Shown here piece by piece: positions 3,739 to 63,764 of a DNA stretch of 64,000 nt. Location of the stretch: the NCBI GenBank assembly GCA_963748165.1, contig CAVVIM010000004.1, positions 1,318 to 65,317 on the forward strand, read 5' to 3'. This stretch comes from an uncultured Alphaproteobacteria bacterium (GTDB taxonomy: Bacteria > Pseudomonadota > Alphaproteobacteria > Rhizobiales > Xanthobacteraceae). Made by a program: the position numbers and the translations under genes. Numbering within the stretch: position 1 is the stretch's first letter; each line of letters starts with the position of its first letter. Under the pieces are notes generated by a model that saw nothing but the letters and a program-made list of their open reading frames with translations, was not told the DNA's origin and ran no database searches.

Positions 3739-5100
3739 TGGACGGCCTCCTCTCGGCAAGGGCTTGTTTGGTGTTTCGGCAAACGGATCGGGGTGCGGTC
3801 ATGTATACGGCCTCTGAATGCGGTCGCTGACCGCGGGCCCTGATGGAGATCGCGGATCGAATTCCAATCATTCCGGCGTGCTGTGACGCGCGATGACGGT
3901 ACGGAGTGTTTCGATCCCGGTTTCCTGACCATTTTGCCATCACACCATAGTTGCCCTTTCCGACAGATGAGCGCGAGCGCGGCGGCTGTCGCCCTCCAAT
4001 CAGGCAGCAGCCGACGCGCTCGCGCGAGCCCGGTACTTCTCTCCTTTGGCCAGCATGGCCCAGATGATACGCGCGGTCTTGGCGGCGAGCGCCACCATGA
4101 CGACCTTATAGGGACGACGCGCCAGCAGCTCGCGCAGCCACGGGTCGCTGACACCGCGCCGCTTCTGGTGGCGCAGATAGCCGCTCGCCCCACTGATCAG
4201 CAGGGCTCGCAGCATGCGGTCGCCCCGTTTGGAGATGCGGCCTGGACGATGCTTGCCGCCGGTGCCGTGATCGCGGCCGGTCAGTCCGATCCAGGCCGCA
4301 AAATCGCGGCCCGAGCGGAACACCTTCGCATCAGCCACCTTGGCCATAACCGTGCTGGCGATGATCGGGCCGACGCACGGCACCTCCATCAGCCGGCGCG
4401 CCTCGCGATCGGCGCGGGCGGCTTGCGTAATCTGTCGCTCCAGCGCGCGCTCATCGGCATCGAGCGCCTGCCAATGCCTGGCCAGAACCAGCAACGTGCC
4501 CCGCATCAGCTCCGGGATCTCCGCGTTTGCCGTTTCGAGCCGGGCCATCAGCTCGCGCAATCCCCTGATGCCCTGCGCCGCCACGATCCCGAGTTCGCCC
4601 AGCGCAGCCCGCAGCGCATTCGCCGCCATCGTGCGCTGCCGCACCAGCAGCGCCCGCGTGGTATGAACCGCCATCGTCGCTTGCTGCTCCACGCTCTTTA
4701 CCGCCACGAACCGCATCGTCGGCCGGCCCACCGCCTCGCAGATCGCCTCCGCGTCGCGGCCATCGTTCTTGTTGCGCTTCAGGTAGGGTTTCACATAGGC
4801 CGGCGGCATCAGCCGCACCTCGTGGCCATAACGGCCGATCACCCGCGCCCAATGGTGCGCGCTGCCACAGGCCTCCATCCCCACCAGGCACGGCGGCAGT
4901 TGCGCAAAAAACTTCTCCACCGCACCACGCCGAAGCTGACGCCGCACCACCACCCCTCCCGACGCGTCAATCCCGTGAACCTGGAACACGTTCTTCGCCA
5001 AATCCAAACCAATCATGCTAATCTCGCCCATGGACGGCTCCCTTGTCTGGTCGAATCGATATCACCAGTCTGGCACACTGATGCCGTCGGGGGCCGTCCA
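3739..5100 (-). mobile_element. IS110-family insertion sequence (boundaries tentative)
   Basis: Contains the single transposase ORF 4000..5031. The only terminal symmetry found is a 9-bp inverted core, TGGACGGCC (3739-3747) paired with GGCCGTCCA (5092-5100), with partial flanking matches. The right end abuts REP family A copy 5107-5186. Confidence 0.5.
4000..5031 (-). CDS. IS110 family transposase
   Basis: 343 aa. The N-terminus MIGLDLAKNVFQVHG...GMEACGSAHHWAR (DEDD-type domain) and the C-terminal part PCVGPIIASTVMAKVADAKVFRSGRDFAAWIGLTGRDHGTGGKHRPGRISKRGDRMLR are typical of IS110/IS1111 transposases. AAGGGAG precedes the ATG. Confidence 0.92.
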   Translation of the reverse strand: MGEISMIGLDLAKNVFQVHGIDASGGVVVRRQLRRGAVEKFFAQLPPCLVGMEACGSAHHWARVIGRYGHEVRLMPPAYVKPYLKRNKNDGRDAEAICEAVGRPTMRFVAVKSVEQQATMAVHTTRALLVRQRTMAANALRAALGELGIVAAQGIRGLRELMARLETANAEIPELMRGTLLVLARHWQALDADERALERQITQAARADREARRLMEVPCVGPIIASTVMAKVADAKVFRSGRDFAAWIGLTGRDHGTGGKHRPGRISKRGDRMLRALLISGASGYLRHQKRRGVSDPWLRELLARRPYKVVMVALAAKTARIIWAMLAKGEKYRARASASAAA

Positions 5101-11607: not shown

Positions 11608-12720
11608 GTGCTCGACAAGCCAGCTCCTCAGTCCGCCACCCGCATTTCCGGCCCGCTCGCCGGTTTTCGCATTGTCGAATTTGCCGGCATCGGACCGGGG
11701 CCGTTCGCCTGCATGATGCTGGCCGACATGGGCGCCGATGTCGTCACGCTGGACCGGATCGGCGCCAAGAAAACCCTCAAATCGGTGGCCGGTCGCGGCC
11801 GCAAGGTGATCGAACTCGACCTCAAGGACAAGGCCGCCATCGCGCAGGCGCTCGATCTGCTCGGCCATGCCGATGCGCTGATCGAGGGTTTTCGTCCCGG
11901 CGTGATGGAGCGGCTCGGGCTCGGGCCTGAACCGGTGCTGGCGCGCAATCCGCGCCTGGTCTACGGCCGCATGACCGGATGGGGCCAAGAGGGTCCGCTG
12001 GCACAGGCCGCCGGCCACGACATCAACTACATTTCGGTCACCGGCGCGCTGGCCGCGATCGGCGGCAAGGACAAGCCGGTGCCGCCGCTCAATCTGGTCG
12101 GCGATTTCGGCGGCGGCGCGCTTTACCTCGTGGTCGGCGTGCTCGCCGCACTGCTGGAAGCCGCGCAATCCGGCAAGGGCCAGGTGGTCGACGCCGCAAT
12201 GTGCGACGGTGCGGCCTCGCTGATGTCGATGTTTTTCGACATGGCGGCGGCCGGCCGCTGGACCGAGCAGCGCGACAGCAATTTCCTCGACGGCGGCGCG
12301 CATTTCTATGGCGTCTACGAATGCTCCTGCGGCCGGTTCATTTCGATCGGCTCGATCGAGCCGCAATTCTACGCACTGCTGCGCCAGCATGCCGGCCTTT
12401 CCGACGCCGACTTCGACGCGCAGATGGACCGCGACGCCTGGCCGGCGCTGAAACAAAGACTGGCGCAGGTGTTCAAGACCAAATCCCGCGACGAGTGGTG
12501 CGGCATCATGGAAGGCAGCGACATCTGCTTCGCGCCGGTGCTCACCATGAGCGAGGCGCCCGGCCATCCGCACATGGCCGCGCGCGAGATCTTCGTCACC
12601 CGCCACGGCGTCACCCAGCCCGCCCCGGCACCGCGCTTCTCGCGCACGCCATCGGCGATCCGCGATGCCGCCAAGGCCGATATCGCCGAGGTGGCGGCGG
12701 CGTGGAAGACGAAGAGGTAG
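11608..12720 (+). CDS. family III CoA-transferase (CaiB/BaiF; alpha-methylacyl-CoA racemase-like)
   Basis: 370 aa. [32 protein letters not shown]...[15 protein letters not shown]...[17 protein letters not shown] is the typical N-terminal pattern of the family. GTG start. Confidence 0.85.
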
Positions 12721-12723
12721 CCG

Positions 12724-12800
12724 TAGTAGTAGGGTGGGCCAAGCGCAGCGTGCCCACCGTTTCAGTCGCGGTGGGCACGCTTCGCTTTGTCTACCCTACC
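12724..12800. repeat. REP family C copy 1 (GGGTGGGC...GTGCCCACC...GGTGGGCACGC...GCTTTGTCTACCCTAC)
   Basis: A second, longer copy in the same orientation lies at 14960-15086. It contains the inverted GTGCCCACC / GGTGGGCAC arms. Confidence 0.8.
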
Positions 12801-12825
12801 GTCTGGTGCTAACGCACCGTCCCGG

Positions 12826-13944
<1,119 letters not shown>

Positions 13945-14066
13945 GGCGAATCTCCTGCTGCTGGCGTTGGCGTATTTTCGGCCATTTTGGGCGCAAAGTG
14001 CGTGCAAAACGGCAGCAAATTCGCTAGAATGATGCATGTTCTGTGCATGGATTGCGATGTTTACGC

Positions 14067-16620: not shown

Positions 16621-17967
16621 TCACCGCCGGTTCGGATCGAAGCGCTTTTCCAGGCCCTTCCAGCAATCGGCGTAATCGTCCTGCAGGGTCGGCGAATTGG
16701 CGGCATGGGCGGTGATGCGTTGCGGATAGCGCGTCTCGAACATGAAGGCCATGGTCCCTGTCAGCTTGACCGGCTTGAGCTCGGTGTTGCTGGCGTGATC
16801 GAAGGCCTCGCGATCCGGGCCATGCGGCAGCATGCAATTATGCAGCGAGATGCCGCCGGGGGTAAAACCCTGCGGCTTGGCGTCATAGACCCCGTAGATC
16901 AGCCCCATGAACTCCGACATGATGTTCATGTGGTACCAGGGCGGACGGAACGTGTTCTCCGCCACCGCCCAGCGCTCCGGAAAGATCACGAAATCGATAT
17001 TGGCGGTGCCCGCGGTTTCCGACGGCGAGGTCAGCACGGTGAAGATCGAGGGATCGGGATGGTCGAAGCCGATCGCGCCGATCGGCGAAAAGCTCCGCAG
17101 GTCGTATTTGTAGGGCGCATAATTGCCGTGCCAGGCCACCACATCGATCGGCGAGTGCGGCAGCCTGGTCGCAAACAGCGCGCCGCCCCATTTCACGAAC
17201 AGTTCGGTCGGCGTGTCCTTGTCCTCATAGGCCGCGACCGGGGTGAGGAAGTCGCGCGCATTGGCCAGGCAATTGGCGCCGATCGGTCCGCGCTCCGGCA
17301 GCGTGAAGGCGCCGCCATAATTCTCGCAGAGATAGCCGCGCGCGGGGCCGGAGGGAATCTCGACCCGGAATTTCACCCCGCGCGGAATCACCGCGATTTC
17401 GCCGGGCTCGGCGTCAATGCGGCCGAACTCGGTGACGAAGCGCAGATTGCCCTGCTGCGGCACGAACAGCATCTCGCCGTCGGCATTGTAGAAATGCTGA
17501 TCGACCATCGAGCGGGTGATCAGATAGACATGCGCGGCCATCCCGGCCTGGGTGTTGACGTCGCCGGCCGTGGTCATGGTCTGCACGCCGTGCAGGAAAG
17601 TCAGGTCCGCTTTCGGGATCGGCGCCGGATCCCAGCGCAGTTGCGCGATCGGCAGTTCGACCTCGTGACACGGCGCCGAGCGCCACAGCCCGGCATCGAC
17701 CTTGGCAAAGCGACCCGAATGCCGGACCGACGGACGGATCCGATACAGCCATGAGCGCTCGTTGCTGCCGCGCGGCGCCGTGAAGGGCGAGCCGGACAAT
17801 TGCTCGGCGTAAAGCCCGTAGGCGCAGCGCTGCGGCGAATTGCGTCCGATCGGCAGGGCGCCCGGCAGCGCCTCGGTCTCAAAGCTGTTGCCGAAGCCGG
17901 ACATGTAGCCCGGCGTGATGCTGACGACGCTGCGGTTGATGGTGTCCGGCGAGGCGTTGATATTCAT
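16621..17967 (-). CDS. hmgA: homogentisate 1,2-dioxygenase
   Basis: [46 protein letters not shown]...[24 protein letters not shown]...[15 protein letters not shown] are HGD hallmarks. The ATG at 17967 lies 6 nt after AAGGAGG, so the long ORF start at 18585 is rejected. Confidence 0.93.
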
Positions 17968-17969
17968 GG

Positions 17970-18923
17970 TCATCCTCCTTGCAGGCTGGCCCACATTTCG
18001 CGGTCGCGCGTGTCGGTCCAGATCACGGGATCGTCGATACCCGAGGCTTCGTCGAAGGCGCGCGAGACGTTGAACGGCAGGCAATGCTCGTAGATGGCGA
18101 AGCCGGAAAACTTCGGATCCATCACCTCGCGGGCCGCCGCCATGGTATCCCTGAGAGTGCGTCCCTTCGCCACCGCGGTTTCCGCCGCGCCGTACAGGGT
18201 GGTGACAAAGTCGCGCGTCATCGCGATGGCTTCGCGCCCGGTTGCCAGCCCCTTCAGCGCATCGCCCCGCCCCGGCGCGATCGCCCTGGGATTGAAGGCG
18301 CGAATTTCGTTCAGCGTCGCCGGCCATTCGCGCAGATGCGCGTCGCCGCAATAACAGGCCGAATGATATTCGATCAGGTCGCCGGAAAACATCACCTCGG
18401 CGTCCGGCACCCACGCCACGATATCGCCGGAGGTGTGCCCGGCACCGAGCTGCAGCAGCCGCACTTCGCGCTTTCCCAGATAGATCGACATCTCGCCTTC
18501 GAAGGTCAGGGTCGGCCAGGTCAGGCCGGGAATGCTGCCGGCATCCTGGAACAGGCGCGGAAAGCGGCCATATTCGGAATCCCAATCCTGCTGGCCACGC
18601 TCCCCGACCAGCCGGTAGGTTTCCTGCGAGGCGACGATCGCCTGGGCCTGGTAGGCGGACGCGCCCAGCACCCGCACCGCATGATAGTGCGACAGCACGA
18701 CATATTTGATCGGCTTGTCGGTGACCGTGCGCACCCGCTCGATCACCTTGTTGGCCATCGCCGGCGTCGCCTGCGCGTCGAACACCATGCAGCCGTCGTC
18801 GCCGACGATCACCGCGGAATTGGGATCGCCTTCGGCGGTGAAAGCGTAGAGGTCGGTGCCGATCTCGGAGAAGGTGACTTTCTTCTCCGCCATGTCGGAG
18901 GTCGATGCAAATCCCTTGGCCAT
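17970..18923 (-). CDS. MBL-fold metallo-hydrolase
   Basis: The HxHxD-like motif is [10 protein letters not shown], followed later by GAGHTSGD. Its stop lies 2 nt before the hmgA ATG, and the hmgA RBS sits inside its 3' end. The start is ATG 18923 or TTG 18926. Confidence 0.8.
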
Positions 18924-53359: not shown

Positions 53360-53929
53360 TCAGGCGGCCTTGGCTTTGGATTTCGCCACATGGGTGGCGA
53401 TCGCATCCATCAGCGCCGGCGACAGGCAGTCATAGGGCTCAAGCCCGAGTTCCCTGAGCCGGGTCCGGATCCCGCCCATCGCGGACGGCTCGACCCCGGA
53501 CTCGATCACCGAGGACACGAACGCGGCAAAGCCCGGCGCCGCCGAGCCGGCTTCGGTGAACAGTTCGGGATGGATGAAATCCAGCCCGTAGAACGGATGC
53601 GCCTTGTTCTCGATGCGGCCGAACATATGGGTTCCGCACACCTTGCAGGCGTGGCGCTGGATCGCCGCCGAGGCGTCGACGACGTGCAGCTTGTCGCCGT
53701 TCTCGAGCACGCTCACGCTGTCGCGCGGAACCACCGCGACCACCGAAAAGATGGCGCCGTCCGGTTTCCAGCATTTGGTGCAGCCGCAGGCATGGTTGTG
53801 GGCGACGTCGCCCTTGATGCCGACCTTGACCGGCTTGTCCTTGCACTTGCAGACCAGCGTGCCGCCGGCAAAGCTGCCCGAACCCTTCTTCACTCCCTGG
53901 TCAACCGATGGGTGGATATGAACAGTCAT
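53360..53929 (-). CDS. gfa: S-(hydroxymethyl)glutathione synthase (glutathione-dependent formaldehyde-activating enzyme)
   Basis: [24 protein letters not shown]...[19 protein letters not shown]...[34 protein letters not shown]...[47 protein letters not shown] is near-colinear with Paracoccus Gfa. AAGGAGGA precedes the ATG at 53929. Confidence 0.93.
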
Positions 53930-53981
53930 AGGCCTATCCTCCTTGGTGTTTGACGTTTTTGATTGCAACGACGCGCTTGCT

Positions 53982-55091
53982 CTAGAATACCACAACCGAA
54001 CGGATCGACTTGCCTTCGTGCATCAGCTCGAAGCCCCGGTTGATCTCCTCCAGCTTGAGAACGTGGGTGATCATCGGGTCGATCTGGATCTTGCCGTTCA
54101 TGTACCAGTCGACGATCTTGGGCACATCGGTACGGCCGCGGGCGCCGCCGAACGCGGTGCCCTTCCAGACCCGCCCGGTCACGAGCTGGAACGGCCGGGT
54201 GGCGATCTCCTTGCCGGCTTCCGCCACCCCGATCACCACCGATACCCCCCAGCCGCGATGACAGGCTTCCAGCGCCTGGCGCATCACGTGGGTGTTGCCG
54301 GTGCAGTCGAAGGTGAAGTCGGCGCCGCCGTCGGTCAGCGTCACCAGATGCGCGACGATGTCGCCGCCGAGCTTCGTCGGGTTGACGAAATGCGTCATGC
54401 CGAACTTGCGGCCCCAGGCCTCCTTGGAATCGTTGAGGTCGACGCCGATGATCTTGTCGGCGCCCACCATCCTCGCACCCTGAATGACATTGAGCCCGAT
54501 GCCGCCGAGGCCGAACACCACCACATTGGCGCCCGGCGTCACCTTGGCGGTGTTGACCACCGCGCCGACCCCCGTGGTCACGCCGCAGCCGATGTAACAG
54601 CTCTTGTCGAACGGCGCGTCCTGCCGGATTTTCGCCACCGCGATCTCCGGCAGCACGGTAAAATTCGAAAACGTCGAGCAGCCCATGTAATGGAAGATGG
54701 TCTTGCCCTTGTGGCTGAAGCGCGAACTGCCGTCCGGCATCACGCCCTTGCCCTGGGTGGCGCGGATCGCGGTGCACAGATTGGTCTTCTGGCTGAGGCA
54801 GCTTTTGCACTGCCGGCATTCCGGCGTGTACAGCGGGATCACATGGTCGCCGGGCTTCACCGACGTGACCCCCGCGCCCACCTCGCGGACAATGCCGGCG
54901 CCCTCGTGCCCGAGGATCGAGGGGAAAATTCCCTCGCTGTCGAAGCCATCCAGCGTGTAGGCGTCGGTATGGCAAATGCCCGTCGCCCTGATCTCGACCA
55001 GCACCTCGCCGGCTCTCGGACCCTCCAGATCAAGCTCGACAATCTCAAGCGGCTTCTTCGCCTCGAACGCAACGGCGGCGCGTGTCTTCAT
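53982..55091 (-). CDS. frmA: S-(hydroxymethyl)glutathione dehydrogenase / class III alcohol dehydrogenase
   Basis: [68 protein letters not shown]...[15 protein letters not shown]...[15 protein letters not shown] are class III ADH hallmarks. Confidence 0.93.
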
Positions 55092-55169: not shown

Positions 55170-55709
55170 TCATTTGATACCTGTGCAACTGGTCTCGGCC
55201 TGTGCGGCGGCTTCGGGCTTGTCTTCATGGCTGGGCGGTCGGCCGCCCGGAATGGCATTGTTGGCGCGGGCGCGCAGGTAGACGTAGATGTCGTCGAGAT
55301 AGCACATCACATTGACGTTGGTGGCGAAGGACGGCATCACCTTGTCATTGGCGGCATCGACATTCTTGCGGCCGTTGGTGACGACATTGACGAAGTCCGA
55401 ATAGTTCAGCGTCTTGAGCGATTTGGCCAGCGCCGGCGCATAGCTCGAGCCCTCGCCATTGGGGCCATGGCAGACATGGCAGTCCGAATGATAGCGGCGA
55501 AAGCCGGAGAAGGTGTACCAGTCGACGGTGCCGTCCGGGCTGATCTTGTAGGTCGGGTTGCCATCCTTATCGACATATTTGCCGTTGTCGGAGGAGGCGA
55601 CCGCCGGATCGCCCGGCGCCTCGGCACCGGCGGCTCCGGCCGCGGCGAGGCTCGCCAGCACGGCGAGCGCGAATTTCCAGGCCGCGAATTTCCAGGATGT
55701 GAGCTTCAC
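55170..55709 (-). CDS. mono-haem c-type cytochrome, XoxG/cytochrome cL-like partner of the PQQ dehydrogenase
   Basis: Signal peptide VKLTSWKFAAWKFALAVLASLAAAGAAGA. Single CxxCH site (SDCHVCHG). GTG at 55709 follows AAGGA. It lies downstream of xoxF. Confidence 0.8.
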   Translation of the reverse strand: MKLTSWKFAAWKFALAVLASLAAAGAAGAEAPGDPAVASSDNGKYVDKDGNPTYKISPDGTVDWYTFSGFRRYHSDCHVCHGPNGEGSSYAPALAKSLKTLNYSDFVNVVTNGRKNVDAANDKVMPSFATNVNVMCYLDDIYVYLRARANNAIPGGRPPSHEDKPEAAAQAETSCTGIK

Positions 55710-55751: not shown

Positions 55752-55821
55752 CACTGCAACAAAACCGGCGAAACAAAGTCGGCGAAACAAAGCCGGTGCA
55801 ACAAAGTCGGCGAAACAAAAT
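55752..55821. repeat. five tandem copies of a 14-bp unit (CGGCGAAACAAAGT-like) in the xoxF-cytochrome c spacer
   Basis: Units start at 55752, 55766, 55780, 55794 and 55808: CACTGCAACAAAAC, CGGCGAAACAAAGT, CGGCGAAACAAAGC, CGGTGCAACAAAGT, CGGCGAAACAAAAT. Confidence 0.85.
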
Positions 55822-55849
55822 CGGCGCGCGGCAAGCCAGCAGCGCGCCG
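55808..55849 (-). terminator. intrinsic terminator/attenuator between xoxF and the cytochrome c gene
   Basis: On the minus strand CGGCGCGC-(12-nt loop)-GCGCGCCG is followed by ATTTTGTTTCG. It starts 30 nt after the xoxF stop. Confidence 0.5.
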
Positions 55850-55879: not shown

Positions 55880-57751
55880 CTACTCGCTCGGCAACGCGAA
55901 CACGGTCAGCGTGCCGCCCAGCGAGGTGTAGGAGGCGAGGCCGGCATAGCCGCCGACGGCGCCAAGGCCCGCGGTGTCGACGGTCTTGTCCTTGGTCGGC
56001 AGCTTGCCCTGGTCGACGGCGTCATGCCAGGCGGCGGCGTTTTCAGGCTGCAGCAGGCCGGCCGCTAGCCCAATGCCCGCCCAGCCGCCAACCCCCGAGA
56101 GCACGGCGACGTATTGCTTGCCGCCATGTTCGTAGGTCATGACGTTGCCGATGATGCCGGACGGGGTCTTGAACTTGTAGAGTTCCTTGCCGGTCTTGGC
56201 ATCGACCGCCTTCAGATAGCCTTCCAGCGTGCCGTAGAACACCACGTTGCCGGCGGTGGCCAGGGCGCCGCCCCAGGCCGAGAACTGCTCCTTGTTGGAC
56301 CACACGATCTTGCCGGTCTTGCCGTCCCAGGCGATGAAATTGCCCATGTTGGAATCGCCCTTGGGCGGATACATCGCCACCGCGGCACCGACATAGGCCT
56401 GGCCGGCGGTGTAGGCGACCTTGTAGGGCTCATAGTCCATGCAGACGTGGTTGGTCGGGACGTAGAACATCTGCGTCTCCGGGCTGTAGGCCGCCGGCTG
56501 TTCGTCCTTGGTGCCGAGCGCCGCCGGGCAGATACCCTTCGAGTTGTGGTCCTCGCCGCCATGCTGGGTCGAATAGGCATCGACCACCAGCGGACGGCCA
56601 TAGGTCTTGGACGACTTGTCCATGTCGACCTTGCTGGCCCAGTTCACCACCGGATCGTACTTCTGTGCGACCAGTAATTCGCCATCGGTCCGGTCGAGCG
56701 TGTAGCCGAAGCCGTTGCGGTCGAAATGCGTCAGCAGCTTGCGCGCCTTGCCGTCGATATTCTGATCGGTCAGGATCATCTCGTTGACGCCGTCATAGTC
56801 CCACTCGTCATGCGGGGTCATCTGGTAGATCCATTTGACCTTGCCGGTGTCGAGATCGCGCGCCCATATCGACATCGACCAGCGGTTGTCGCCGGGGCGC
56901 TGCACCGGGTTCCAGGTCGAGGGATTGCCCGATCCGTAATAAACCAGGTTCAGCTCGGGATCGTAGGAGTACCAGCCCCAGGTGCCGCCGCCGCCGATCT
57001 TCCATTGATCGCCCTCCCAGGTCGAGGTCGAGGAATCAGGTCCGACCGGCTTGCCGAGCGAGGTGGTCTTGACCGGGTCGATCAGGGTGTCGGCGTCCGG
57101 CCCTTCCGAATAGCCGCGCCAGGCGAGCTTGCCGTCCTTGATGTTGTAGGCGCTGACCCAGGCGCGAACCCCGAACTCGCCGCCGGACACGCCGACCAGA
57201 ACCTTGTCCTTGTAAACAAACGGCGCGTCGGTGCCGGACTGGCCCTTGCCGGCTTCGCCGTCCATCACCGACCAGACCTTCTCGCCGGTCTTGGCGTCGA
57301 GCGCCACCAGCGTCGTATCGGCCTGATGCAGGAAGATCTTGCCGTCGGCATAGGCGACGCCGCGGTTGACGGTGTCGCAGCACATGATCGGGATCACGTT
57401 CGGATCCTGCCGGGGCTCGTACTTCCACAGGATCTTGCCGTCATGATTGAGATCAAGCGCATAGACCGTGTTTGGAAACGGCGTGTGAACATACATCACG
57501 TCGCCCACCACCAGCGGGCCTCCTTCGTGACCGCGCAACACCCCGGTCGAGAAGGTCCAGGCCACCTGCAGCTTCCTGACGTTGGAGGCGTTGATCTGAC
57601 TGAGCCTGGAAAACCGCGTGTTGGCGTCGTCGCCCTGCTGCATCACCCACTGCTTCGGATCCTTGGCCGCCTTCTCCAACGCCTCGTCCGCGCGCGCCAG
57701 CGTTCCCTGCAGCGCCATCAGGCTAACGGTTGCGAGTAGCACCTTATGCAT
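55880..57751 (-). CDS. xoxF: PQQ-dependent methanol/alcohol dehydrogenase, XoxF (lanthanide-type)
   Basis: Signal peptide [21 protein letters not shown], vicinal CC ([12 protein letters not shown]), and eight-blade W-motif repeats. [12 protein letters not shown] carries the extra Asp (codon 56792-56794) that distinguishes XoxF from MxaF (DYAG). GGGAGGA precedes the ATG at 57751. Confidence 0.93.
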
Positions 57752-57848
57752 AGTCAATCCTCCCAATGATGAACGAAGGGTTCCGTCAAAACGGACCACT
57801 TTTCAGTTTTGTTCGTTGATATCCCTACCCGGTTCGGAAACAGGAAAC

Positions 57849-57886
57849 TTGCCCAAGAGGGAAACGCGTTTGCGCGGAAGCGAAAC
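57849..57886 (+). promoter_or_regulatory. pair of 17-bp direct repeats with a 21-bp period (TTGCCCAAGAGGGAAAC / TTGCGCGGAAGCGAAAC) in the xoxF-araC divergent region
   Basis: Copies at 57849-57865 and 57870-57886. The first matches the pqqA-upstream repeat TTGTCCAAGAGAGAAAT at 14 of 17 positions. Confidence 0.45.
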
Positions 57887-58169
57887 CCGGCGAACTTTTT
57901 GCCGAGCGCCCGCGACTTTCGCTGGCGGCGCGTCTCCATGCTGCGCAGCGTCAACCGTTTGCCCGCATCGGCCCGTCATGCGCGATCCCCTGGTCGAGGT
58001 TTCCCTTGACGGCGCCGAGACTAAGTCGGAGGATTATCAATGAGGTGTCAGCGAGGAGCGCCGCTCAAACCCAATGATCGCCTTAATTGAGGTAATAGTG
58101 GCTCGATCATGACTCGATGCCTCGCACGGCAAGCCGTCATGTTTTTGATCTCGAATCGGTGGCTGGATA

Positions 58170-59141
58170 ATGTCCGACACGGTCCGCTCACTTAGTACTT
58201 CCGGATTGGCGCCGAAGAAGCAGATCCAATGTTGGTCAGATGCACTGACCGATCTTTGCGGCCAATTCGACGTCGATCCGCTGGAGGCCTCGTCATTCGA
58301 AGGCCGGATCAACTACACGACGGTCTCGAAACTCAAGCTGTGTCAGATCGAGGCGAGCCAGCATCGGCTTGCGCATACCGCCTCGCGGGCAAAACTCGAT
58401 GCCCATCCGTTCGTCAAGATATTGTTTCAGACCTACGGGATCTCGCATTTCGAGCAGGAGGGCCGCCGCATCGAACTGATGCCCGGCGACTGTCTCGCCT
58501 ACGACGTATCCTGTCCGCACACCATCGTCAGCCCGACGCTGACGCGACACGAGGTCGTCATCGTGCCGAAGCAACTGCTGCAGGAACGCGGCTTCCGCTC
58601 GGCGAAGATGTCGGCATGCAAGCTCTCGGCGCGCACCGGCACCGGCCGGATCGCCTATGATTTTGTCCATGCCGCGTTCGACGAAGCGACCAAGCTGTCG
58701 CCGAACAACGCGATCGGAGTGGCCGATGCGCTGATCGACCTTCTGCTGTTGCCGCTGCGCGAGCCCTACGCGATGTTCGATCGTGTCGGGCCCGAGGCGA
58801 TGTATGTCCGGGCGCAGTTCTTCATCCGCGAACATCTGCGCGACCCGGACCTTTCCATCGACCAGATATCCGCGGCATTAAGCTGCACCAAGCGCTATCT
58901 GCACATGTTGTTCAGCGACAGGGGTACCACCATCAGCGACTATATCCGACGCGCCAGGTTGCAGAACTGCCGCCAGGAACTGGAGACCCAGGCCGGAAAG
59001 ACCATCACGGACGTGGCATTCTCGTGGGGCTTTTCGAGTTCGTCGCACTTCAGCCGCGTGTTCCGGGAGTATTTCGGAATTGTTCCGTCTGCGATTCACA
59101 AGGCGCAGCACGGTCTGTCCCCGGACTTTCCCTGCGAATAG
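58170..59141 (+). CDS. AraC family transcriptional regulator
   Basis: 323 aa. The C-terminal double HTH reads ISAALSCTKRYLHMLFSDRGTTISDYIRRARLQNCRQEL...ITDVAFSWGFSSSSHFSRVFREYFGIVPS. Its GC content is visibly lower than that of neighbouring genes. Confidence 0.9.
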   Translation: MSDTVRSLSTSGLAPKKQIQCWSDALTDLCGQFDVDPLEASSFEGRINYTTVSKLKLCQIEASQHRLAHTASRAKLDAHPFVKILFQTYGISHFEQEGRRIELMPGDCLAYDVSCPHTIVSPTLTRHEVVIVPKQLLQERGFRSAKMSACKLSARTGTGRIAYDFVHAAFDEATKLSPNNAIGVADALIDLLLLPLREPYAMFDRVGPEAMYVRAQFFIREHLRDPDLSIDQISAALSCTKRYLHMLFSDRGTTISDYIRRARLQNCRQELETQAGKTITDVAFSWGFSSSSHFSRVFREYFGIVPSAIHKAQHGLSPDFPCE

Positions 59142-59150
59142 AACTTCCGC

Positions 59151-59182
59151 TTCGGTGTGAACAGCATTCGGTGTGAACAGCA
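59151..59182. repeat. perfect tandem duplication 2 x TTCGGTGTGAACAGCA
   Basis: Copies at 59151-59166 and 59167-59182, immediately after the araC-family stop codon. Confidence 0.9.
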
Positions 59183-59220
59183 GATGTCAGCTATGCACGC
59201 TTGCTCGCTGTGTGCTCTCT

Positions 59221-59275
59221 CCCGAATCAAAGCGCGGCCCGGCTCGATGCGACAACTGCCGATCGAGCCGGGCCG
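59221..59275 (-). terminator. strong hairpin terminator downstream of pqqA (possibly bidirectional)
   Basis: A perfect 14-bp stem: CGGCCCGGCTCGAT (59235-59248) pairs with ATCGAGCCGGGCCG (59262-59275). On the minus strand it is followed by CGCTTTGATTC. It lies between the convergent araC-family gene and pqqA. Confidence 0.6.
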
Positions 59276-59291
59276 ACCGTTTCGATGCGTG

Positions 59292-59372
59292 TTATTTGCG
59301 CGCTGCGCAGGCGTACATGTTGATTTCCATGCCCACTGGCAGTTCGACAATTTTAGGAGTCTTCCAGCTCAT
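59292..59372 (-). CDS. pqqA: coenzyme PQQ precursor peptide PqqA (26 aa)
   Basis: MSWKTPKIVELPVGMEINMYACAARK carries the invariant Glu-X3-Tyr (E-INM-Y) and a W-x-x-P N-terminus. GGGAGGA lies 4 nt before the ATG at 59372. It is hidden inside the longer track ORF 59292..59480. Confidence 0.85.
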   Translation of the reverse strand: MSWKTPKIVELPVGMEINMYACAARK

Positions 59373-59495
59373 TCCATCCTCCCGATAAGTTTGACGCGAA
59401 CTCCACGTCGAGGCGGAAGCTAGGGCCGCGCCCGACCTCGCGCAAGTGCGGAAGATCAAGCATCGAACGCCTACAGGCAAGGTCTGACAGCCGAT

Positions 59496-59533
59496 ATTTC
59501 TCTATCGGACAATGCGATTTCTCTCTTGGACAA
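59496..59533 (-). promoter_or_regulatory. pair of 17-bp direct repeats with a 21-bp period upstream of pqqA (minus strand: TTGTCCAAGAGAGAAAT / TTGTCCGATAGAGAAAT)
   Basis: The plus-strand copies ATTTCTCTATCGGACAA (59496-59512) and ATTTCTCTCTTGGACAA (59517-59533) lie 124-161 bp upstream of the pqqA ATG. Confidence 0.5.
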
Positions 59534-59683: not shown

Positions 59684-61450
59684 TCAAGCTGGCAGGCCCG
59701 CCTTGAGAAGGCCAGCCTCGTGGTGCCGGCGGTCGACTTCGCGCTTGTAGTGCTGGGTCGCGAGATAAGCGGCTACCGAGAATTTCGGCTCGCGGTTCAG
59801 GACCTCTGCCGCATGCGCGGTAGCCGCGACCGCGTTGCCCATACGGGCGAACGTAGCGGCGAGGAAGGCATGATGCGTGTGGTCAGGCCGGGTGATCCGC
59901 GAAAAGGCCTCGGCGGCTTCGGCATATTTCCCGGCGCAATAGCAGGCACGCCCGAGGTGGCTCCAGAAACGTTCCGGGTGGTACGGATTAAGGCGCATCG
60001 CCTTCTTGATCCATTCGATGCCCTCTTCCGGGCGCCCCAACCACGTGAGAAGCTCGCCCTGTTGCACGACGACAAGGTCGTAGTTGGGGTTGAGCACCAG
60101 CGCCCGCTCCTGATGGTAGGCGGCCTTGTCATGATCATCGCGGTTCAAGTTCAATGCCGCGAGAATCCGATGCACGTCGCTGTCATTGTCATCGAGCGCG
60201 AGAGCGATCTCGACCTCCGCGGCCACCTTCTCGAAGGTGGCGTCGCGATCCGCACACCAGCCATAAGTCCATTGCTGACCCAGTACGCATCCCTTCCAGG
60301 CATGAGCGTGAGCATAGTTCGGGTCAAGCGCGAGGGCGCGGTCGAGCAGGCGCTGCGCCTCGGCGTTGTCCTCCCGGATCGAGCGGTGGTGGAGCACCTT
60401 GGCGGCCAGCACGCACTCATAGGCCGCCATGTTGTCCGTCGGCTTGCGCTTCGCACGGTCGTGCGTGGCGGCCTCGACGCGACCGGGTAGCGTCGCAACA
60501 ATCGCGCAGGTCATCTCGTCCTGGATGGCGAAGATATCCTCGAGTTTGCGATCGTAGCGTTCGGCCCAGACGTGCCGGTCGGTTTCTGCGTCGATCAACT
60601 GCACGGTGACGCGAATACGGTCGCCCGCCTTTCGCACGCTTCCCTCGAGGATATATTCGACGGCGAGTTCGCGCGCGACCTCCTGCACCTTCACTGCCTT
60701 GCCCTTGTACACAAAGGCCGAATTGCGCGAAATAACGAGCAGGCCGCGGAAGCGAGACAATTCGGTAATGATGTCCTCGGTCAGGCCGTCCGCGAAGAAC
60801 TCCTGCTCCGGATCGCCGCTCATGTTGACCAGCGGTAGCACAGCGACGGACGGCTTCTTGGCGATCGTTGTCGCTGCCGCGGCATCCCGCGCGCCCTCCG
60901 GCGGGGTGGATGCGTCTGGGTCAAGCCGGATCCGAAAGACGTGGATCGGACGGGCGATATTCTTCACGCTCTGGTCACCGAGATCCTCGAATGAAATGTC
61001 CTCCAGTCGGTCGCCGACCTGATCGCGCACCGCGCTCGAGACACAGATGCCGCCCGGCTCGGCAAGCATTTCAAGTCGCGCCGCTACGTTGACGCCGTCG
61101 CCAAAGATGTCATTCTCCTCAACGATCACGTCGCCCAAATTGATGCCGATGCGGAACTGTATCCACCGCGCCGGCGAGACGTCGGTGTTGCGTCGCGCCA
61201 TCCGGCGCTGGATCTCGGCAGCGCAAAGGACTGCGTCGGCGACGCTGTGGAATTCGAGCAGCATGCCGTCGCCGGTGGTCTTGATGATGCGGCCGCGGTT
61301 TCTGGCGATGGCCGGATCGATGAGCTCGATCCGATGGGTCTTGAGGCGCGCGAGCGTCCCGGTCTCGTCGACCTCCATCAGCCGACTGTAACCCACCATA
61401 TCAGCCGCGACGACGGCTGCGAGCCTGCGCTCAGGTCCGGGCACGGCCAT
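59684..61450 (-). CDS. class III adenylate/guanylate cyclase with a central TolB-N-like region and C-terminal TPR repeats
   Basis: The N-terminal cyclase core reads RRLAAVVAADMVGYSRLM...IKTTGDGMLLEFHSVADAV...FRIGINLGDVIVEENDIFGDGVNVAARLE. It continues with KPSVAVLPLVNMSGDPEQEFFADGLTEDIITELSR and TPR-like repeats. Confidence 0.88.
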   Translation of the reverse strand: MAVPGPERRLAAVVAADMVGYSRLMEVDETGTLARLKTHRIELIDPAIARNRGRIIKTTGDGMLLEFHSVADAVLCAAEIQRRMARRNTDVSPARWIQFRIGINLGDVIVEENDIFGDGVNVAARLEMLAEPGGICVSSAVRDQVGDRLEDISFEDLGDQSVKNIARPIHVFRIRLDPDASTPPEGARDAAAATTIAKKPSVAVLPLVNMSGDPEQEFFADGLTEDIITELSRFRGLLVISRNSAFVYKGKAVKVQEVARELAVEYILEGSVRKAGDRIRVTVQLIDAETDRHVWAERYDRKLEDIFAIQDEMTCAIVATLPGRVEAATHDRAKRKPTDNMAAYECVLAAKVLHHRSIREDNAEAQRLLDRALALDPNYAHAHAWKGCVLGQQWTYGWCADRDATFEKVAAEVEIALALDDNDSDVHRILAALNLNRDDHDKAAYHQERALVLNPNYDLVVVQQGELLTWLGRPEEGIEWIKKAMRLNPYHPERFWSHLGRACYCAGKYAEAAEAFSRITRPDHTHHAFLAATFARMGNAVAATAHAAEVLNREPKFSVAAYLATQHYKREVDRRHHEAGLLKAGLPA

Positions 61451-61886
61451 CTCTCCGGTTCCTTTCGCGGAGCAGCATAACAGATGATAGACCTTGGCCC
61501 AAGCTCGCGCGGGCCACTCGCCGAATTAACATTTCAGCTACACCTGTTTGACCAAGTCGCGCGATAATAGGCCCCCCATCGAACCGATCCAGCATCGGGT
61601 CTCTTCGAGCCCGAACGGGCAGCGACGCTTTCGAAATGGTCAAACTGATGAAGCGGTCTGGCTGGTCCTCTCGGCTACTTCACTTTGGGCCGCTCTGCAT
61701 CCTGTGGGAGCGCGAACAAAAACAACTGCGACGCCGCTTTGAAAGACTTGATTGCCGCGGCCGAACACCGCATGAGACCACCGCCATGAACGGACGTTAG
61801 CCTGGCCGAGCGGTAGGCATCGATCGGGTGTTGGCGCGGCAGTTCAGTTATTGTACAAAAATGGCGCGCGAAGGGACTTGCGTGCC

Positions 61887-63764
61887 ATGGTGCAAGAGCA
61901 ATCTAGTCGGGTCGGACGTAGGTTGTCGGCGATAGTGGCCGCCGACGTGGCTGGTTATTCACGGCTAATGGGTCTCGACGAAGTTGGCACTGCTCGCATT
62001 CTCCGCGAACATCGCGCCGTCTCCGACGCACTGGTGGCGAAGCACGGTGGTCGTATCGTCAAGACCACGGGCGACGGCCTCCTGATCGAGTTTGCATCGG
62101 TGGTCGATGCCGTCGAATGCGCGGTGGCGGTGCAGTCCGCGATGGCGGAGCGCAACGAAGGCATTCCGCAAGACCGGCGCATGTTGTTCCGGATGGGGAT
62201 CAACCTCGGTGACATCCTGATTGAGGGCGACGACATCCTGGGCGATGGCGTCAATGTTGCAGCACGGCTTGAGGGCGTCGCCAAACCCGGCGGCATCTGC
62301 ATATCGGCTTCGGCGTATGATCAGGTTCGCGGAAAGATCGCGGTCGAGTTCACCGATCTGGGCGAGCAGAGCCTCAAGAACATCGCACGTCCGGTACGAG
62401 CCTATACTGTCGTCCCGGACGGACTTGCCGCGGGGATACAGGCCGGCAGCACGACGTCGAGCCCATCATCAGCGCCACGCTTGTCCATCGTGGTTCTGCC
62501 GTTCGCGAACATCGGCGGCGATCCCGAACAAGATTATTTCGTCGATGGCGTGACCGAGAGCCTGACCACCGACCTGTCGCGCATCGGCGGCTCGTTCGTG
62601 ATCGGACGACACACCGCATTCACATTCAAGGGAAAAGCGGTCGATCTCAAACAGATCGGCCGCGAACTGAACGTCCGCTACGTGCTTGAAGGCTCGGTAC
62701 AGCGCGGCGGCAACCGGATTCGGGTTAACGTGCAGTTGATTGACGCGGAGACCGGCAACCACCTGTGGGCCGAGCGCTTCGATAAGCCCATCGCAGACCT
62801 GTTCGATATGCAGGACGAAATCGTATCGAGGCTCGCCAACACGCTCGGTACCCAACTCATAGCCGCGGAAGCGCGACGATCTGAACGTGCCCTGCATGTC
62901 GACGCAATGGACCTGTTTTTCCAGGGCGTCGCCAGCCTCTATAAAGGGATTACACCGGCACACATGTTACAAGCCCAGACCTTTTTCGAGCGAGCCTTGG
63001 CGCTCGATCCCGAAAATGCGGATGTGTTGGTCGGTTCGCTCGCCGTTGACCTTGCCAGGGGCCTCCACTTCTTCACCGACGACGGGACTCCTCTAATCGA
63101 AGCAGCTACAGCAAAATTGAATATGGTTCTTTCTATGGCGCCAGAGAACGCCCCGGCCCACATGTTTATGGGCCTTCTTCTGAGCGCGACGAAGCGCGCG
63201 ACCCAGGGCATTGCTGAATGCGAGAGGGCACTTGCATTGGATAGGAACCTAGCCAATGCGCATGCCTTCATTGGTTGGGCAAAGCATCTTCTTGGTCGCG
63301 GTATAGAAACAGAACGTCACGTAAACGAGGCGTTCCGCCTGTCTCCTCGCGATATTATGGCCTACAGTTGGATGTCTTATGTGGGCAGCGCCAAGATGCA
63401 GATGGAGGCCTACGATGAAGCGGTCGCCTGGTTCCGCCGAAGCAACGAGGCCAATCCAAACTATCCCGGCACGCTCTTCGGCCTCGCCGCTGCCCTGGCA
63501 AAAGCAGGTGAACTGAGCGAGGCGCGTTCGGCCACGAAGTCCGGACTTGCGCTTTTCCCAGAGTTCACTATCCGCCGTGTTCGGGCTCGCAATCCAAGCG
63601 ACAATCCGACGTACCTTGCAGCGCGCGAACACACCTATGAGGGCATGCGCTTGGCCGGCGTGCCGGAGGCTGATGTCTCGGATTCGGGCTCGTACACGGC
63701 AGCACATGGCATGTCGGCACGATCATTTCATCGGCTACTCACATCAATAGCCCAACGCGGCTAG
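61887..63764 (+). CDS. class III adenylate/guanylate cyclase with a TolB-N-like region and TPR repeats; paralog of 59684..61450
   Basis: RRLSAIVAADVAGYSRLM...VKTTGDGLLIEFASVVDAV...FRMGINLGDILIEGDDILGDGVNVAARLE...PRLSIVVLPFANIGGDPEQDYFVDGVTESLTTDLSR. ATG at 61887, though a TTG at 61851 is also possible. Confidence 0.88.
   Translation: MVQEQSSRVGRRLSAIVAADVAGYSRLMGLDEVGTARILREHRAVSDALVAKHGGRIVKTTGDGLLIEFASVVDAVECAVAVQSAMAERNEGIPQDRRMLFRMGINLGDILIEGDDILGDGVNVAARLEGVAKPGGICISASAYDQVRGKIAVEFTDLGEQSLKNIARPVRAYTVVPDGLAAGIQAGSTTSSPSSAPRLSIVVLPFANIGGDPEQDYFVDGVTESLTTDLSRIGGSFVIGRHTAFTFKGKAVDLKQIGRELNVRYVLEGSVQRGGNRIRVNVQLIDAETGNHLWAERFDKPIADLFDMQDEIVSRLANTLGTQLIAAEARRSERALHVDAMDLFFQGVASLYKGITPAHMLQAQTFFERALALDPENADVLVGSLAVDLARGLHFFTDDGTPLIEAATAKLNMVLSMAPENAPAHMFMGLLLSATKRATQGIAECERALALDRNLANAHAFIGWAKHLLGRGIETERHVNEAFRLSPRDIMAYSWMSYVGSAKMQMEAYDEAVAWFRRSNEANPNYPGTLFGLAAALAKAGELSEARSATKSGLALFPEFTIRRVRARNPSDNPTYLAAREHTYEGMRLAGVPEADVSDSGSYTAAHGMSARSFHRLLTSIAQRG

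Follow-up and report, generated by a model that had tools for sequence, protein, structure and literature searches.

Two pairs of 17-bp direct repeats, one upstream of xoxF and one upstream of pqqA in the 64-kb stretch of DNA analyzed here (the window), are, judged by their conservation, real operator-type sites that are under selection and specific to these promoters, and they are probably the operators of the FeaR-like AraC-family regulator that is encoded between them. The prediction that this regulator controls both the xoxF operon and pqqA is well supported by the sequence evidence; the identity of the binding protein, the sign of regulation, the positions of the promoters, and the effector are points that we infer.

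Two repeat pairs and the regulator gene between them

On the xoxF side, half-site 1 (TTGCCCAAGAGGGAAAC; 57849-57865, plus strand; PWM score 25.5 bits) lies nearest to xoxF and is followed by half-site 2 (TTGCGCGGAAGCGAAAC; 57870-57886, plus strand; 20.8 bits), which starts 21 bp past the start of half-site 1. On the pqqA side, both half-sites are on the minus strand, with half-site 3 (TTGTCCAAGAGAGAAAT; 59517-59533; 29.4 bits) distal and half-site 4 (TTGTCCGATAGAGAAAT; 59496-59512; 25.2 bits) proximal to pqqA. A sequence-only reading had singled out these four 17-mers, and a check against the sequence found their coordinates and strands to be exact to the base, as was the 21 bp between repeat starts in both pairs. 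The distances that it described were also correct (98-135 bp to the xoxF ATG at 57751 and 284-321 bp to the regulator ATG at 58170 for one pair, 124-161 bp to the pqqA ATG at 59372 for the other), and profile matches bear out its gene calls, i.e., a xoxF-type dehydrogenase, an AraC-family regulator, and pqqA. Only its consensus, TTGYCC.R.AGRGAAAY, required a minor correction, as half-site 2 departs from it with a G at position 5 and a C at position 12; across 102 distinct half-sites the consensus is TTG[CT]CC[AG][AG]GAG[ACG]GAA[AG][CT], with TTG.CC and AG.GAA as the informative blocks.

The paired pattern TTG-N9-GAAAY-N4-TTG-N9-GAAAY, with up to two mismatches, occurs twice in the window vs. 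0.02 expected occurrences, and none of 100 shuffled sequences reached two; a chance origin of the pairs is thus excluded. A PWM scan for pairs at a very low threshold found only the same two pairs in the window and none in the shuffles. Lone 17-mers with two mismatches are not above chance (6 found vs. 7.6 expected). Each pair represents a defined, predicted operator of 38 bp.

The candidate binder of the pairs is a FeaR-like AraC-family protein of 323 aa (58170-59141, plus strand). Its N-terminal domain matches AraC_binding_2 (PF14525; 53 bits vs. a cutoff of 27; residues 22-191) and its C-terminal domain (residues 234-309) matches HTH_18 (PF12833; E 1.6e-20) and PF00165 (E 1.4e-13), representing the two helix-turn-helix motifs that place the protein in the AraC/XylS family; the asymmetric direct repeats of approximately 17 bp with a 21-bp period have the layout expected of operators of that family. 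FeaR is by far the best NCBIfam match (NF007243; 176.9 bits; residues 16-308), and the protein aligns with Escherichia coli FeaR over its full length at 23% identity (E 8e-28). As the score remains below the cutoff of 199, the protein is classified, by profile, as FeaR-like and not as a FeaR equivalog; the QhpR profile scored 39.7 bits vs. a cutoff of 250. The proposal that the repeats are AraC-family sites is strengthened by these matches, since E. coli FeaR operators are 21-bp direct repeats as well.

Conservation across Bradyrhizobium-like genomes

The orthologue set, which was obtained by protein search, consists of relatives that are 84-93% identical, so that conservation as reported here covers Bradyrhizobium-like genomes. 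The xoxF-side pair is found in all 80 orthologous Bradyrhizobium loci, and an alignment of 81 orthologous regions shows near-invariant half-sites with a variable spacer and variable flanks. The pqqA-side pair is present in 46 of the 50 loci with an adjacent pqqA and has been retained through rearrangements; it tracks pqqA both where that gene converges with the regulator gene and where it lies 1-4.5 kb off on the other strand, and it is always located 101-148 bp from the ATG in the orientation of the gene. The sites thus stay linked to the regulator gene and to pqqA. Loci L027 and L052 lie in the complete Bradyrhizobium genomes NZ_CP188195.1 and NZ_CP136626.1. Spacing is conserved too: in the genome loci, the xoxF-side repeats are 21 bp apart in 78 of 80 cases and 22 bp apart in loci L045 and L076, and overall 139 of 142 xoxF-side and 79 of 81 pqqA-side pairs show the 21-bp spacing, the rest having 22 bp.

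Conservation in orthologous intergenic regions, which the sequence-only reading had put forward as a check, takes the form of a footprint in which half-sites are kept and the spacer drifts. Its concern that the motif may be a dispersed repeat is likewise settled by the numbers, with two pairs per 64 kb and, in 654 kb of related genome loci, 126 pairs that all fall into two contexts (80 between xoxF and the regulator gene and 46 at pqqA); no pair with at least 22 bits was found in other contexts in these 80 loci.

The xoxF operon and its promoter region

The gene xoxF (55880-57751, minus strand) encodes a lanthanide-type PQQ methanol dehydrogenase (TIGR03075; 765 bits vs. 480) and is the first gene of an operon that is divergent from the regulator gene. 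Its product is best matched in the PDB by Methylobacterium extorquens XoxF1 (6oc5; 1006 bits) and carries WDYDG at residue 317, i.e., the extra Asp two residues past the catalytic Asp (DYD) that identifies it as a XoxF protein; this extra Asp has a known role in lanthanide-type dehydrogenases. The operon continues, all on the minus strand, with a gene for a xoxG-like cytochrome c (55170-55709; NCBIfam TIGR03874), flhA/frmA (53982-55091; TIGR02818), and gfa (53360-53995; TIGR02820). In B. japonicum USDA 110, genes in the same xoxF-xoxG-flhA-gfa order are transcribed as a single unit (PMC4070659), and the genes of the operon are up 27- to 59-fold on methanol in Bradyrhizobium sp. 3456, a strain in which the PQQ genes are without methanol induction (PMC12628762). 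Neither of these two papers names a regulator of the operon or a promoter element for it, and blr6213, pqqA, and the neighbouring genes have zero occurrences in the USDA 110 dRNA-seq supplement.

The distance between half-site 1 and the xoxF ATG is constant at 91-101 bp (53 distinct loci), whereas that between the pair and the regulator ATG is long and varies from 242 to 321 bp. Read from TTG to GAAA, the pair is oriented toward the regulator gene and away from xoxF; the xoxF and pqqA promoters must therefore use opposite orientations and different promoter classes. A putative, weak xoxF promoter, GTTTCC-N17-GGGATA (57820-57848, minus strand), would abut half-site 1, and the GGAAAC at 57843-57848 is invariant. 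Inspection by eye of the spacer between xoxF and the regulator gene yielded no convincing sigma-54 promoter or conserved small ORF.

Both xoxF and pqqA are strongly expressed in soil metatranscriptomes. The RNA contigs used here, from two rounds, are fragmented, unstranded (Logan), and strain-mixed, with possible DNA carry-over, and their ends cannot stand for start sites. Three contigs on the xoxF side end at 57841, 57796, and 57778, all short of the pair; the one that reaches 57841, 8 bp from half-site 1, is an exact match at a depth of 2.4. This end argues against the placement of the xoxF promoter at GTTTCC-N17-GGGATA, and, taken as a true 5' end, it would mean that the pair and the core xoxF promoter overlap, which would point to repression. 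From the pair to approximately 58080, RNA depth is 0.9 vs. 13-30 in the regulator gene. The metatranscriptomes yielded no usable contigs over the pqqA leader.

The orphan pqqA and its helically phased leader

On the other side of the regulator gene, pqqA (59292-59372, minus strand; TIGR02107, 46.1 bits vs. a cutoff of 20) encodes a peptide of 26 aa (MSWKTPKIVELPVGMEINMYACAARK), which has the conserved E-X3-Y of PqqA in the form EINMY. No pqqBCDE and no lanthanide-uptake genes are present in the window, and this pqqA is an orphan copy. A strongly conserved block approximately 74 bp before the ATG suggests a core promoter, CTTGCG-N17-CTAGCT (59418-59446, minus strand). In 60 of 61 distinct pqqA leaders, the distance from the pair to the putative -35 is 26-28, 37-38, or 46-50 bp, and this spacing is periodic with a peak at 10.5 bp (R 0.89). 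The pair is thus one, two, or three helical turns upstream of CTTGCG-N17-CTAG(C/G)T, a pattern that reads as a signature of class I activation. Control of pqqA by the predicted operator appears not to be universal, since the pair has been lost at 3 of 50 adjacent pqqA genes, locus L038 retains just one good half-site, and a distal pqqA copy in L202 is without the pair; this distal copy retains the promoter block.

Search of metagenomes by the motif alone

A motif-only search, as proposed in the sequence-only reading, favors that reading, as do the other computational checks that it put forward: it recovers xoxF, pqqA, and further genes associated with PQQ dehydrogenases. In the metagenomes, this search gave 62 pairs located between xoxF and the regulator gene plus 35 ahead of pqqA; in 63 of the motif-found contigs the regulator gene comes directly after the pair, and 2 more contigs are too short to tell. 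Further intergenic pairs are located at genes of a quinoprotein relay system (L110, L176, L166) and at a gene for a LuxR-type response regulator of a two-component system (L156/L160), with pairs oriented toward the relay metallohydrolase and response regulator genes. In L160, a TTGACA-N17-TCTAAT promoter begins 28 bp past the pair; L110 has GTTTCC-N17-TAAGAT ahead of a MoxJ-like gene, and L166 shows xoxF, the pair geometry, and the promoter arrangement seen here without a regulator gene on that side. In one clade (22 genome loci), a gene for a two-component kinase is located at a distance of approximately 3.6 kb from the regulator gene; the window contains no such kinase or response regulator, though both pairs are present.

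A number of matches were set aside. Relay-system matches in L088, L127, L168, and L199 and a second match in L176 were rejected as they lie inside the coding sequence of a zinc metallohydrolase; these stretches encode 7-residue peptide repeats, so a coincidence of coding explains their 21-bp period. Exact tandem repeats of 21 bp (L083, L094, L100, L125, L147, L179, L184, L190) were regarded as noise of the loose pattern, and L151, L185, L191, and L196, in unrelated contexts, as probable chance matches. Whether L182 has an operator ahead of its paralogous AraC gene is left uncertain because the scores of the pair there are weak (17.6 and 17.0 bits) and the encoded protein is just 24% identical.

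Discussion

If the FeaR-like regulator binds the pairs, one monomer with its two helix-turn-helix motifs would contact TTG.CC and AG.GAA, approximately 10 bp apart, and two monomers on the 21-bp-spaced repeats would occupy one face of the DNA. At pqqA, the pair would act as a helically phased, class-I-like upstream activating site, with half-site centres at approximately -94 and -115 in the window and a predicted start near 59411; at xoxF, where it faces the other way and keeps a constant distance, it would abut the -35 of the xoxF-xoxG-flhA-gfa operon and act in a class-II-like manner from approximately -33 to -70, with a predicted start near 57813. The dehydrogenase operon and extra PQQ precursor peptide would then be induced together, and the signal, by analogy with FeaR, may be the aldehyde product or the alcohol substrate. 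Several points count against this explanation: one RNA contig reaches 57841, the regulator is only 23% identical to FeaR and scores below the cutoff of its profile, the PQQ genes of strain 3456 were not induced by methanol, some pqqA genes are without a full pair, and xoxF would need an orientation opposite to that of both pqqA and E. coli feaB.

The same orientation favors the idea that the xoxF-side pair mainly serves autoregulation, driving or limiting expression of the regulator, with xoxF controlled elsewhere and with pqqA and the same-orientation genes as the true activation targets. The pair faces the regulator gene as other pairs face pqqA, the relay metallohydrolase gene, and the response regulator gene, E. 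coli FeaR sites likewise face feaB, and self-control is common in the AraC family. We nevertheless regard autoregulation as the main role as rather unlikely, given that the distance is fixed to the xoxF ATG and variable to the regulator ATG, that conserved promoter-like hexamers are missing beyond the pair on the regulator side, that RNA depth is low between the pair and approximately 58080 compared to the gene itself, and that L166 keeps the geometry of pair and xoxF without a regulator gene there. A different role at xoxF itself, with the regulator as a repressor or dual regulator that occupies the core promoter and is released with its effector, would fit the RNA contig that reaches 57841, as a 5' end at this position would place the half-sites at approximately -8 to -45. 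However, this contig is of low depth (2.4), Logan contigs are strandless and may include DNA carry-over, the other two contigs end farther from the pair, and no -10/-35-like hexamers that suit a start at 57841 were seen by eye; with FeaR and most two-domain AraC proteins being activators, we consider repression very unlikely.

It is also quite improbable that a different protein, e.g., a LuxR/NarL-type response regulator, binds the pairs and that the AraC gene is merely a neighbour. NarL/LuxR-type proteins typically bind short, often inverted heptamers rather than 17-bp bipartite direct repeats with a 21-bp period, the layout fits that of E. coli FeaR operators, the AraC gene adjoins the pair in the 63 motif-found contigs, and the window has both pairs with neither a kinase nor a response regulator; what would speak for such a binder is that L156/L160 have a pair ahead of a response regulator gene, that 22 genome loci have the kinase close to the regulator gene, and that LuxR-type regulators reportedly control PQQ dehydrogenases in Pseudomonas (PMC6115532). 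Finally, a chance likeness or a repeat, dispersed or mobile, that serves no regulatory purpose, for which one may point to the chance-level count of lone 17-mers and to metagenome matches of the loose pattern to unrelated tandem repeats of 21 bp and to heptad repeats in coding sequence, is refuted by the rarity of the paired form (2 vs. 0.02 expected per window), the confinement of all 126 genome-locus pairs to two orthologous promoter contexts, the retention of half-sites while spacers drift, and the helical phasing of the promoter spacing, and is left with next to no probability.

Among known systems, FeaR of E. coli is the closest parallel to the FeaR-like regulator described here. The E. 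coli feaB and tynA promoters each contain TGNCA-N8-AAA twice, exactly 21 bp apart; Zeng and Spiro are said to have reported in 2013 that this is the FeaR operator motif and that an aldehyde acts as co-activator. Both proteins combine an AraC_binding_2 domain with two C-terminal helix-turn-helix motifs, both sets of sites are two direct repeats with starts 21 bp apart that have a 5' TG.C and a 3' AAA, both regulator genes are divergent from a known or predicted target, E. coli FeaR sites face their target gene, as the pqqA pair faces pqqA, and in both cases the known or predicted target enzyme is a periplasmic quinone-cofactor oxidoreductase that yields an aldehyde. By contrast, the half-site here is TTGYCC-N6-GAAA, with the AAA 1 bp closer than in TGNCA-N8-AAA and with C instead of A at position 5; the predicted targets are xoxF-xoxG-flhA-gfa and pqqA instead of tynA and feaB; and the pqqA pair is 26-50 bp upstream of the -35 and helically phased, whereas the FeaR site overlaps the -35. 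No tynA or feaB was found among the window genes scanned, and the promoters with the motif are those of xoxF, pqqA, the relay genes, and the two-component system. The 17-bp half-sites, 4-bp spacer, and 21-bp period are also shared with araI1-I2 of AraC and with Pm of XylS, which represent classical activation by two monomers on direct repeats, and the putative position of the xoxF half-sites, touching the -35 at approximately -33 to -70, resembles araI; unlike in the AraC system, there is no evidence of distal looping sites here, and the N-terminal domain is AraC_binding_2, not the arabinose-binding cupin of AraC. For MarA, SoxS, and Rob, Martin et al. reportedly found in 1999 that marbox orientation depends on promoter class. 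An asymmetric site in opposite orientations, apparently class-I-like at pqqA and class-II-like at xoxF, would be a similar arrangement, but these proteins bind single sites as monomers and here there are always two phased half-sites. With regard to function, MxbDM/MxcQE/MxaB of Methylobacterium, PedS2/PedR2 and PedR1/ErbR of Pseudomonas, and QhpR likewise control a quinoprotein dehydrogenase and sometimes pqq genes; the Methylobacterium and Pseudomonas regulators differ as two-component or LuxR-type systems, while QhpR is also AraC-type and serves a quinohemoprotein amine dehydrogenase. None of these regulators has been reported with the operator described here.

A broader proposal, which we put forward tentatively and consider possible rather than probable, casts the FeaR-like protein as the master activator that is still missing from the picture of lanthanide-dependent methylotrophy in Bradyrhizobium, with methanol or formaldehyde as its signal; sensing the aldehyde product, as FeaR does, and using one operator type in two orientations and promoter classes, it might act in concert on the operon for XoxF and formaldehyde oxidation, on an orphan pqqA that raises the supply of cofactor, on the quinoprotein relay system, which is uncharacterised, and on a LuxR-type two-component system. 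Bradyrhizobium ranks with the most abundant genera in soil; methanol strongly induces its XoxF operon, which also shows high expression in soil metatranscriptomes. The present analysis supplies a predicted operator, a candidate regulator, and a short list of predicted targets, among them the quinoprotein relay genes, whose function is obscure, and hence opens the way to direct tests of how rhizobia control lanthanide-dependent methanol oxidation. The pqqA phase series (28, 38, and 49 bp) amounts to an experiment by nature on how spacing affects class I activation by a dimer of the AraC family, and the promoter and regulator may be of use as a methanol- or aldehyde-responsive pair in biosensors. 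In soil Bradyrhizobium, the pairs are most likely conserved regulatory sites that are bound by the FeaR-like regulator, which makes this protein a candidate regulator of methanol use, a role for which none has been named so far in these bacteria.

Paired repeats and their gene context

The sequence-only reading had proposed that an AraC-family regulator gene (58170-59141, + strand) controls both xoxF and pqqA through a paired motif with 21-bp phasing. The four 17-mers it reported, 57849-57865 and 57870-57886 (+) on the xoxF side and 59533-59517 and 59512-59496 (-) upstream of pqqA, match exactly, with repeat starts 21 bp apart in both pairs. Across the 64 kb of the window the paired pattern is found twice, where 0.02 occurrences are expected, and a pair scan with a weight matrix of the half-site (PWM), its threshold set very permissively, returned just the same two pairs and no pairs in shuffled sequence. 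Single degenerate 17-mers were not enriched in the window; the signal resides in the phased pair.

The flanking genes are also as first described, namely a PQQ methanol/ethanol-family dehydrogenase gene (xoxF; 55880-57751, -; TIGR03075, 765 bits, cutoff 480), the AraC-family gene, and a gene for a 26-residue PqqA (59292-59372, -). On its sequence features the dehydrogenase is evidently a true XoxF: it carries WDYDG at residue 317, and among solved structures it matches M. extorquens XoxF1 best (1006 bits). Genes for a XoxG-like cytochrome c, flhA, and gfa all lie downstream of xoxF in the window, and in B. japonicum USDA 110 the same xoxF-xoxG-like-flhA-gfa order has been described as a single transcription unit (PMC4070659). 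A 2025 study of Bradyrhizobium sp. 3456, which mentions neither AraC nor a regulator or promoter, found that methanol induces xoxF, xoxG, frmA, and gfa 27- to 59-fold, with no methanol induction of PQQ genes (PMC12628762). In the literature covered, no regulator of the AraC type is assigned to either xoxF or pqqA, and pqqBCDE and lanthanide-uptake genes are absent within the 64-kb window.

Other features of the window include a 14-bp tandem repeat (AACAAAGTCGGCGA; 55758-55826, 4.9 copies, 83% matches) in the spacer that separates the stop codon of xoxF from the start of the xoxG-like cytochrome gene; directly beyond pqqA, the genes of two paralogues (59684-61450, -, and 61851-63764, +), each product having an adenylate/guanylate cyclase domain at its N-terminus and TPR repeats at its C-terminus; an IS110-family transposase gene (4000-5031, -); the homogentisate-pathway genes hppD (12826-14037) and hmgA (16621-18585); and genes for an RND efflux system and a molybdenum dehydrogenase.

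Conservation and motif-first search

A regulator-protein search retrieved 80 Bradyrhizobium loci (regulator identity 82-97%). Not one of them lacks the xoxF-side pair, whose spacing is 21 bp in 78 and 22 bp in 2. The intergenic alignment shows near-invariant half-sites (TTGCCCAAGAG.GAA and TTGC.C...AGCGAAA), the spacer and most flanking sequence being variable; this conservation in orthologous intergenic regions supports the sequence-only reading. pqqA was found in 50 of the 80 loci, and 46 of these 50 have a pair 101-148 bp upstream of its ATG in the same orientation as pqqA, both where pqqA is convergent to the regulator gene and where it is found on the other strand at a distance of 1-4.5 kb. 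In four loci the pair is lost from a pqqA that adjoins the regulator gene and is convergent to it, with one good half-site left in L038 and none in L005, L013, and L036; among close relatives, then, the operator turns over in evolution. An orphan pqqA in locus L202 (17079-17159), about 6 kb from a regulator of the 85%-identity clade, keeps its putative core promoter and has no pair; in the same locus a second PQQ dehydrogenase gene after the regulator gene (12119-13530) looks fragmented, perhaps through assembly frameshifts. Within the 654 kb of these loci, all pairs of at least 22 bits fall in an xoxF/regulator or pqqA context. We consider it nearly certain that the pairs are a real conserved cis-regulatory element.

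A loose 36-bp pattern matched at least 120 stretches of metagenome contigs, which were sorted by PWM and neighbouring genes. This motif-only search recovered both xoxF and pqqA: among the matches listed, 62 pairs lie between divergent xoxF and regulator genes and 35 upstream of pqqA, and by a separate count the regulator gene adjoins 63 xoxF-side pairs among the matches listed, two more contigs being too short to show it. Further intergenic pairs lie between an operon for "quinoprotein relay system zinc metallohydrolase 2" and a SoxYZ-like carrier and a gene for a MoxJ-like binding protein (contigs L110 and L176) or an xoxF-like gene (L166), and before a LuxR/NarL-type response regulator gene with adjoining kinase (L156/L160); in 22 of the genome loci the kinase gene of this system and the regulator gene are about 3.6 kb apart. 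A pair of 24.2 and 27.3 bits in L188 (3909-3946, -) lies just past the SoxYZ-like carrier stop in an xoxF-metallohydrolase-SoxYZ cluster, with no recognisable gene downstream in its orientation. Matches in L088, L127, L168, L199, and L176 (4835-4872) were rejected, as they lie inside the metallohydrolase coding sequence, where in-frame 7-residue repeats (LPESEPALPVSEI, APEGNSLAPERT) are encoded by DNA that mimics the operator pair, a caution for motif-only regulon scans. The remaining matches are either tandem repeats or lie in unrelated contexts, where they are probably due to chance.

Promoter geometry and alternative explanations

About 74 bp before the pqqA ATG lies a conserved block, CTTGCG-N17-CTAG(G/C)T, which we take to resemble the alphaproteobacterial sigma-70 consensus and which is retained in the pqqA copy without a pair. 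Across 61 distinct leaders (sequences before the ATG), which are phylogenetically related and thus represent fewer than 61 independent indel events, the distance from pair end to CTTGCG hexamer is, with one exception, 26-28 bp (10 leaders), 37-38 bp (9), or 46-50 bp (41), and a period scan peaks at 10.5 bp (R 0.89). Indels that add or remove complete helical turns are the hallmark of an upstream activator site that depends on the face of the helix, and the pair would act as such at pqqA. In L156/L160, a TTGACA-N17-TCTAAT promoter begins 28 bp past the pair.

The xoxF-side pair is inverted relative to xoxF and lies 91-101 bp from its ATG in 53 distinct loci, and 242 to 321 bp from the regulator ATG. 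Immediately next to the pair stands an invariant hexamer, GTTTCC when read in the direction of xoxF, and GGGATA follows it after 17 bp; the same arrangement recurs in L166, and L110 has GTTTCC-N17-TAAGAT before the MoxJ-like gene. Given the steady distance and the invariant abutting hexamer, we infer a class-II-like arrangement at xoxF. For MarA/SoxS/Rob, site orientation depends on promoter class, and the opposite orientations of one asymmetric site at xoxF and pqqA parallel that rule. On the other strand the hexamer reads GGAAAC (57843-57848), directly 5' of the first half-site, and resembles the 3' part of a half-site. The presumed xoxF leader also contains a conserved segment, GGGTTCCG..AAACGG.CCACTTTT (57780-57800).

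In soil metatranscriptomes, xoxF and pqqA RNA is abundant and regulator RNA scarce; the contigs fix no start sites. Three near-identical RNA contigs reach from xoxF as far as 57778, 57796, and 57841, and none covers the pair. The end at 57841, which does not fit the inferred xoxF -10, keeps alive the alternative that the regulator represses xoxF by promoter occlusion; this contig is unstranded, has a depth of 2.4, and may reflect DNA carry-over. That the xoxF-side pair instead directly drives a long regulator leader is argued against by the RNA depth, which is 0.9 from the pair to about 58080 and 13-30 within the regulator gene itself. The sequence 130-165 bp upstream of the regulator ATG (CCCTTGACGGCGCCGAGACTAAGTCGGAGGATTATCAA; 58003-58040) is strongly conserved; it contains a perfect CTTGAC with no obvious -10 at 16-18 bp and may be either the promoter of the regulator gene or a site for some other protein.

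A FeaR-like regulator as candidate binder

The regulator combines an AraC_binding_2 domain with a two-HTH AraC DNA-binding domain. Its best NCBIfam match is FeaR (176.9 bits, just below the cutoff of 199), it aligns over its full length with E. coli FeaR at 23% identity, and its orthologues bear the label "activator of tynA and feaB" in JGI pipelines. In E. coli, the promoters of feaB and tynA carry TGTCA-N8-AAA and TGGCA-N8-AAA/CAA, twice each and directed toward the gene, with starts exactly 21 bp apart as read from the promoter sequence; the FeaR operator motif was reportedly defined by Zeng and Spiro in 2013. The Bradyrhizobium half-site, TTG[CT]CC-N3-AG.GAA[AG][CT], has the same ends as the E. 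coli FeaR sites but 1 bp less between them, and one helical turn separates its two informative blocks, which fits the expectation for one AraC-family monomer. Since both the protein and the operator layout are FeaR-like, the adjacent regulator is the likeliest candidate, and we predict with reasonable confidence that it binds the pairs. That the xoxF operon and the orphan pqqA are jointly activated is predicted somewhat more tentatively, as the likelier outcome.

The prediction assigns a new regulon to an AraC activator of the FeaR type, whose direct-repeat operator is of the classical form. This regulon, topical if in kind unsurprising, would be useful for the study of lanthanide methylotrophy and rhizobial physiology.
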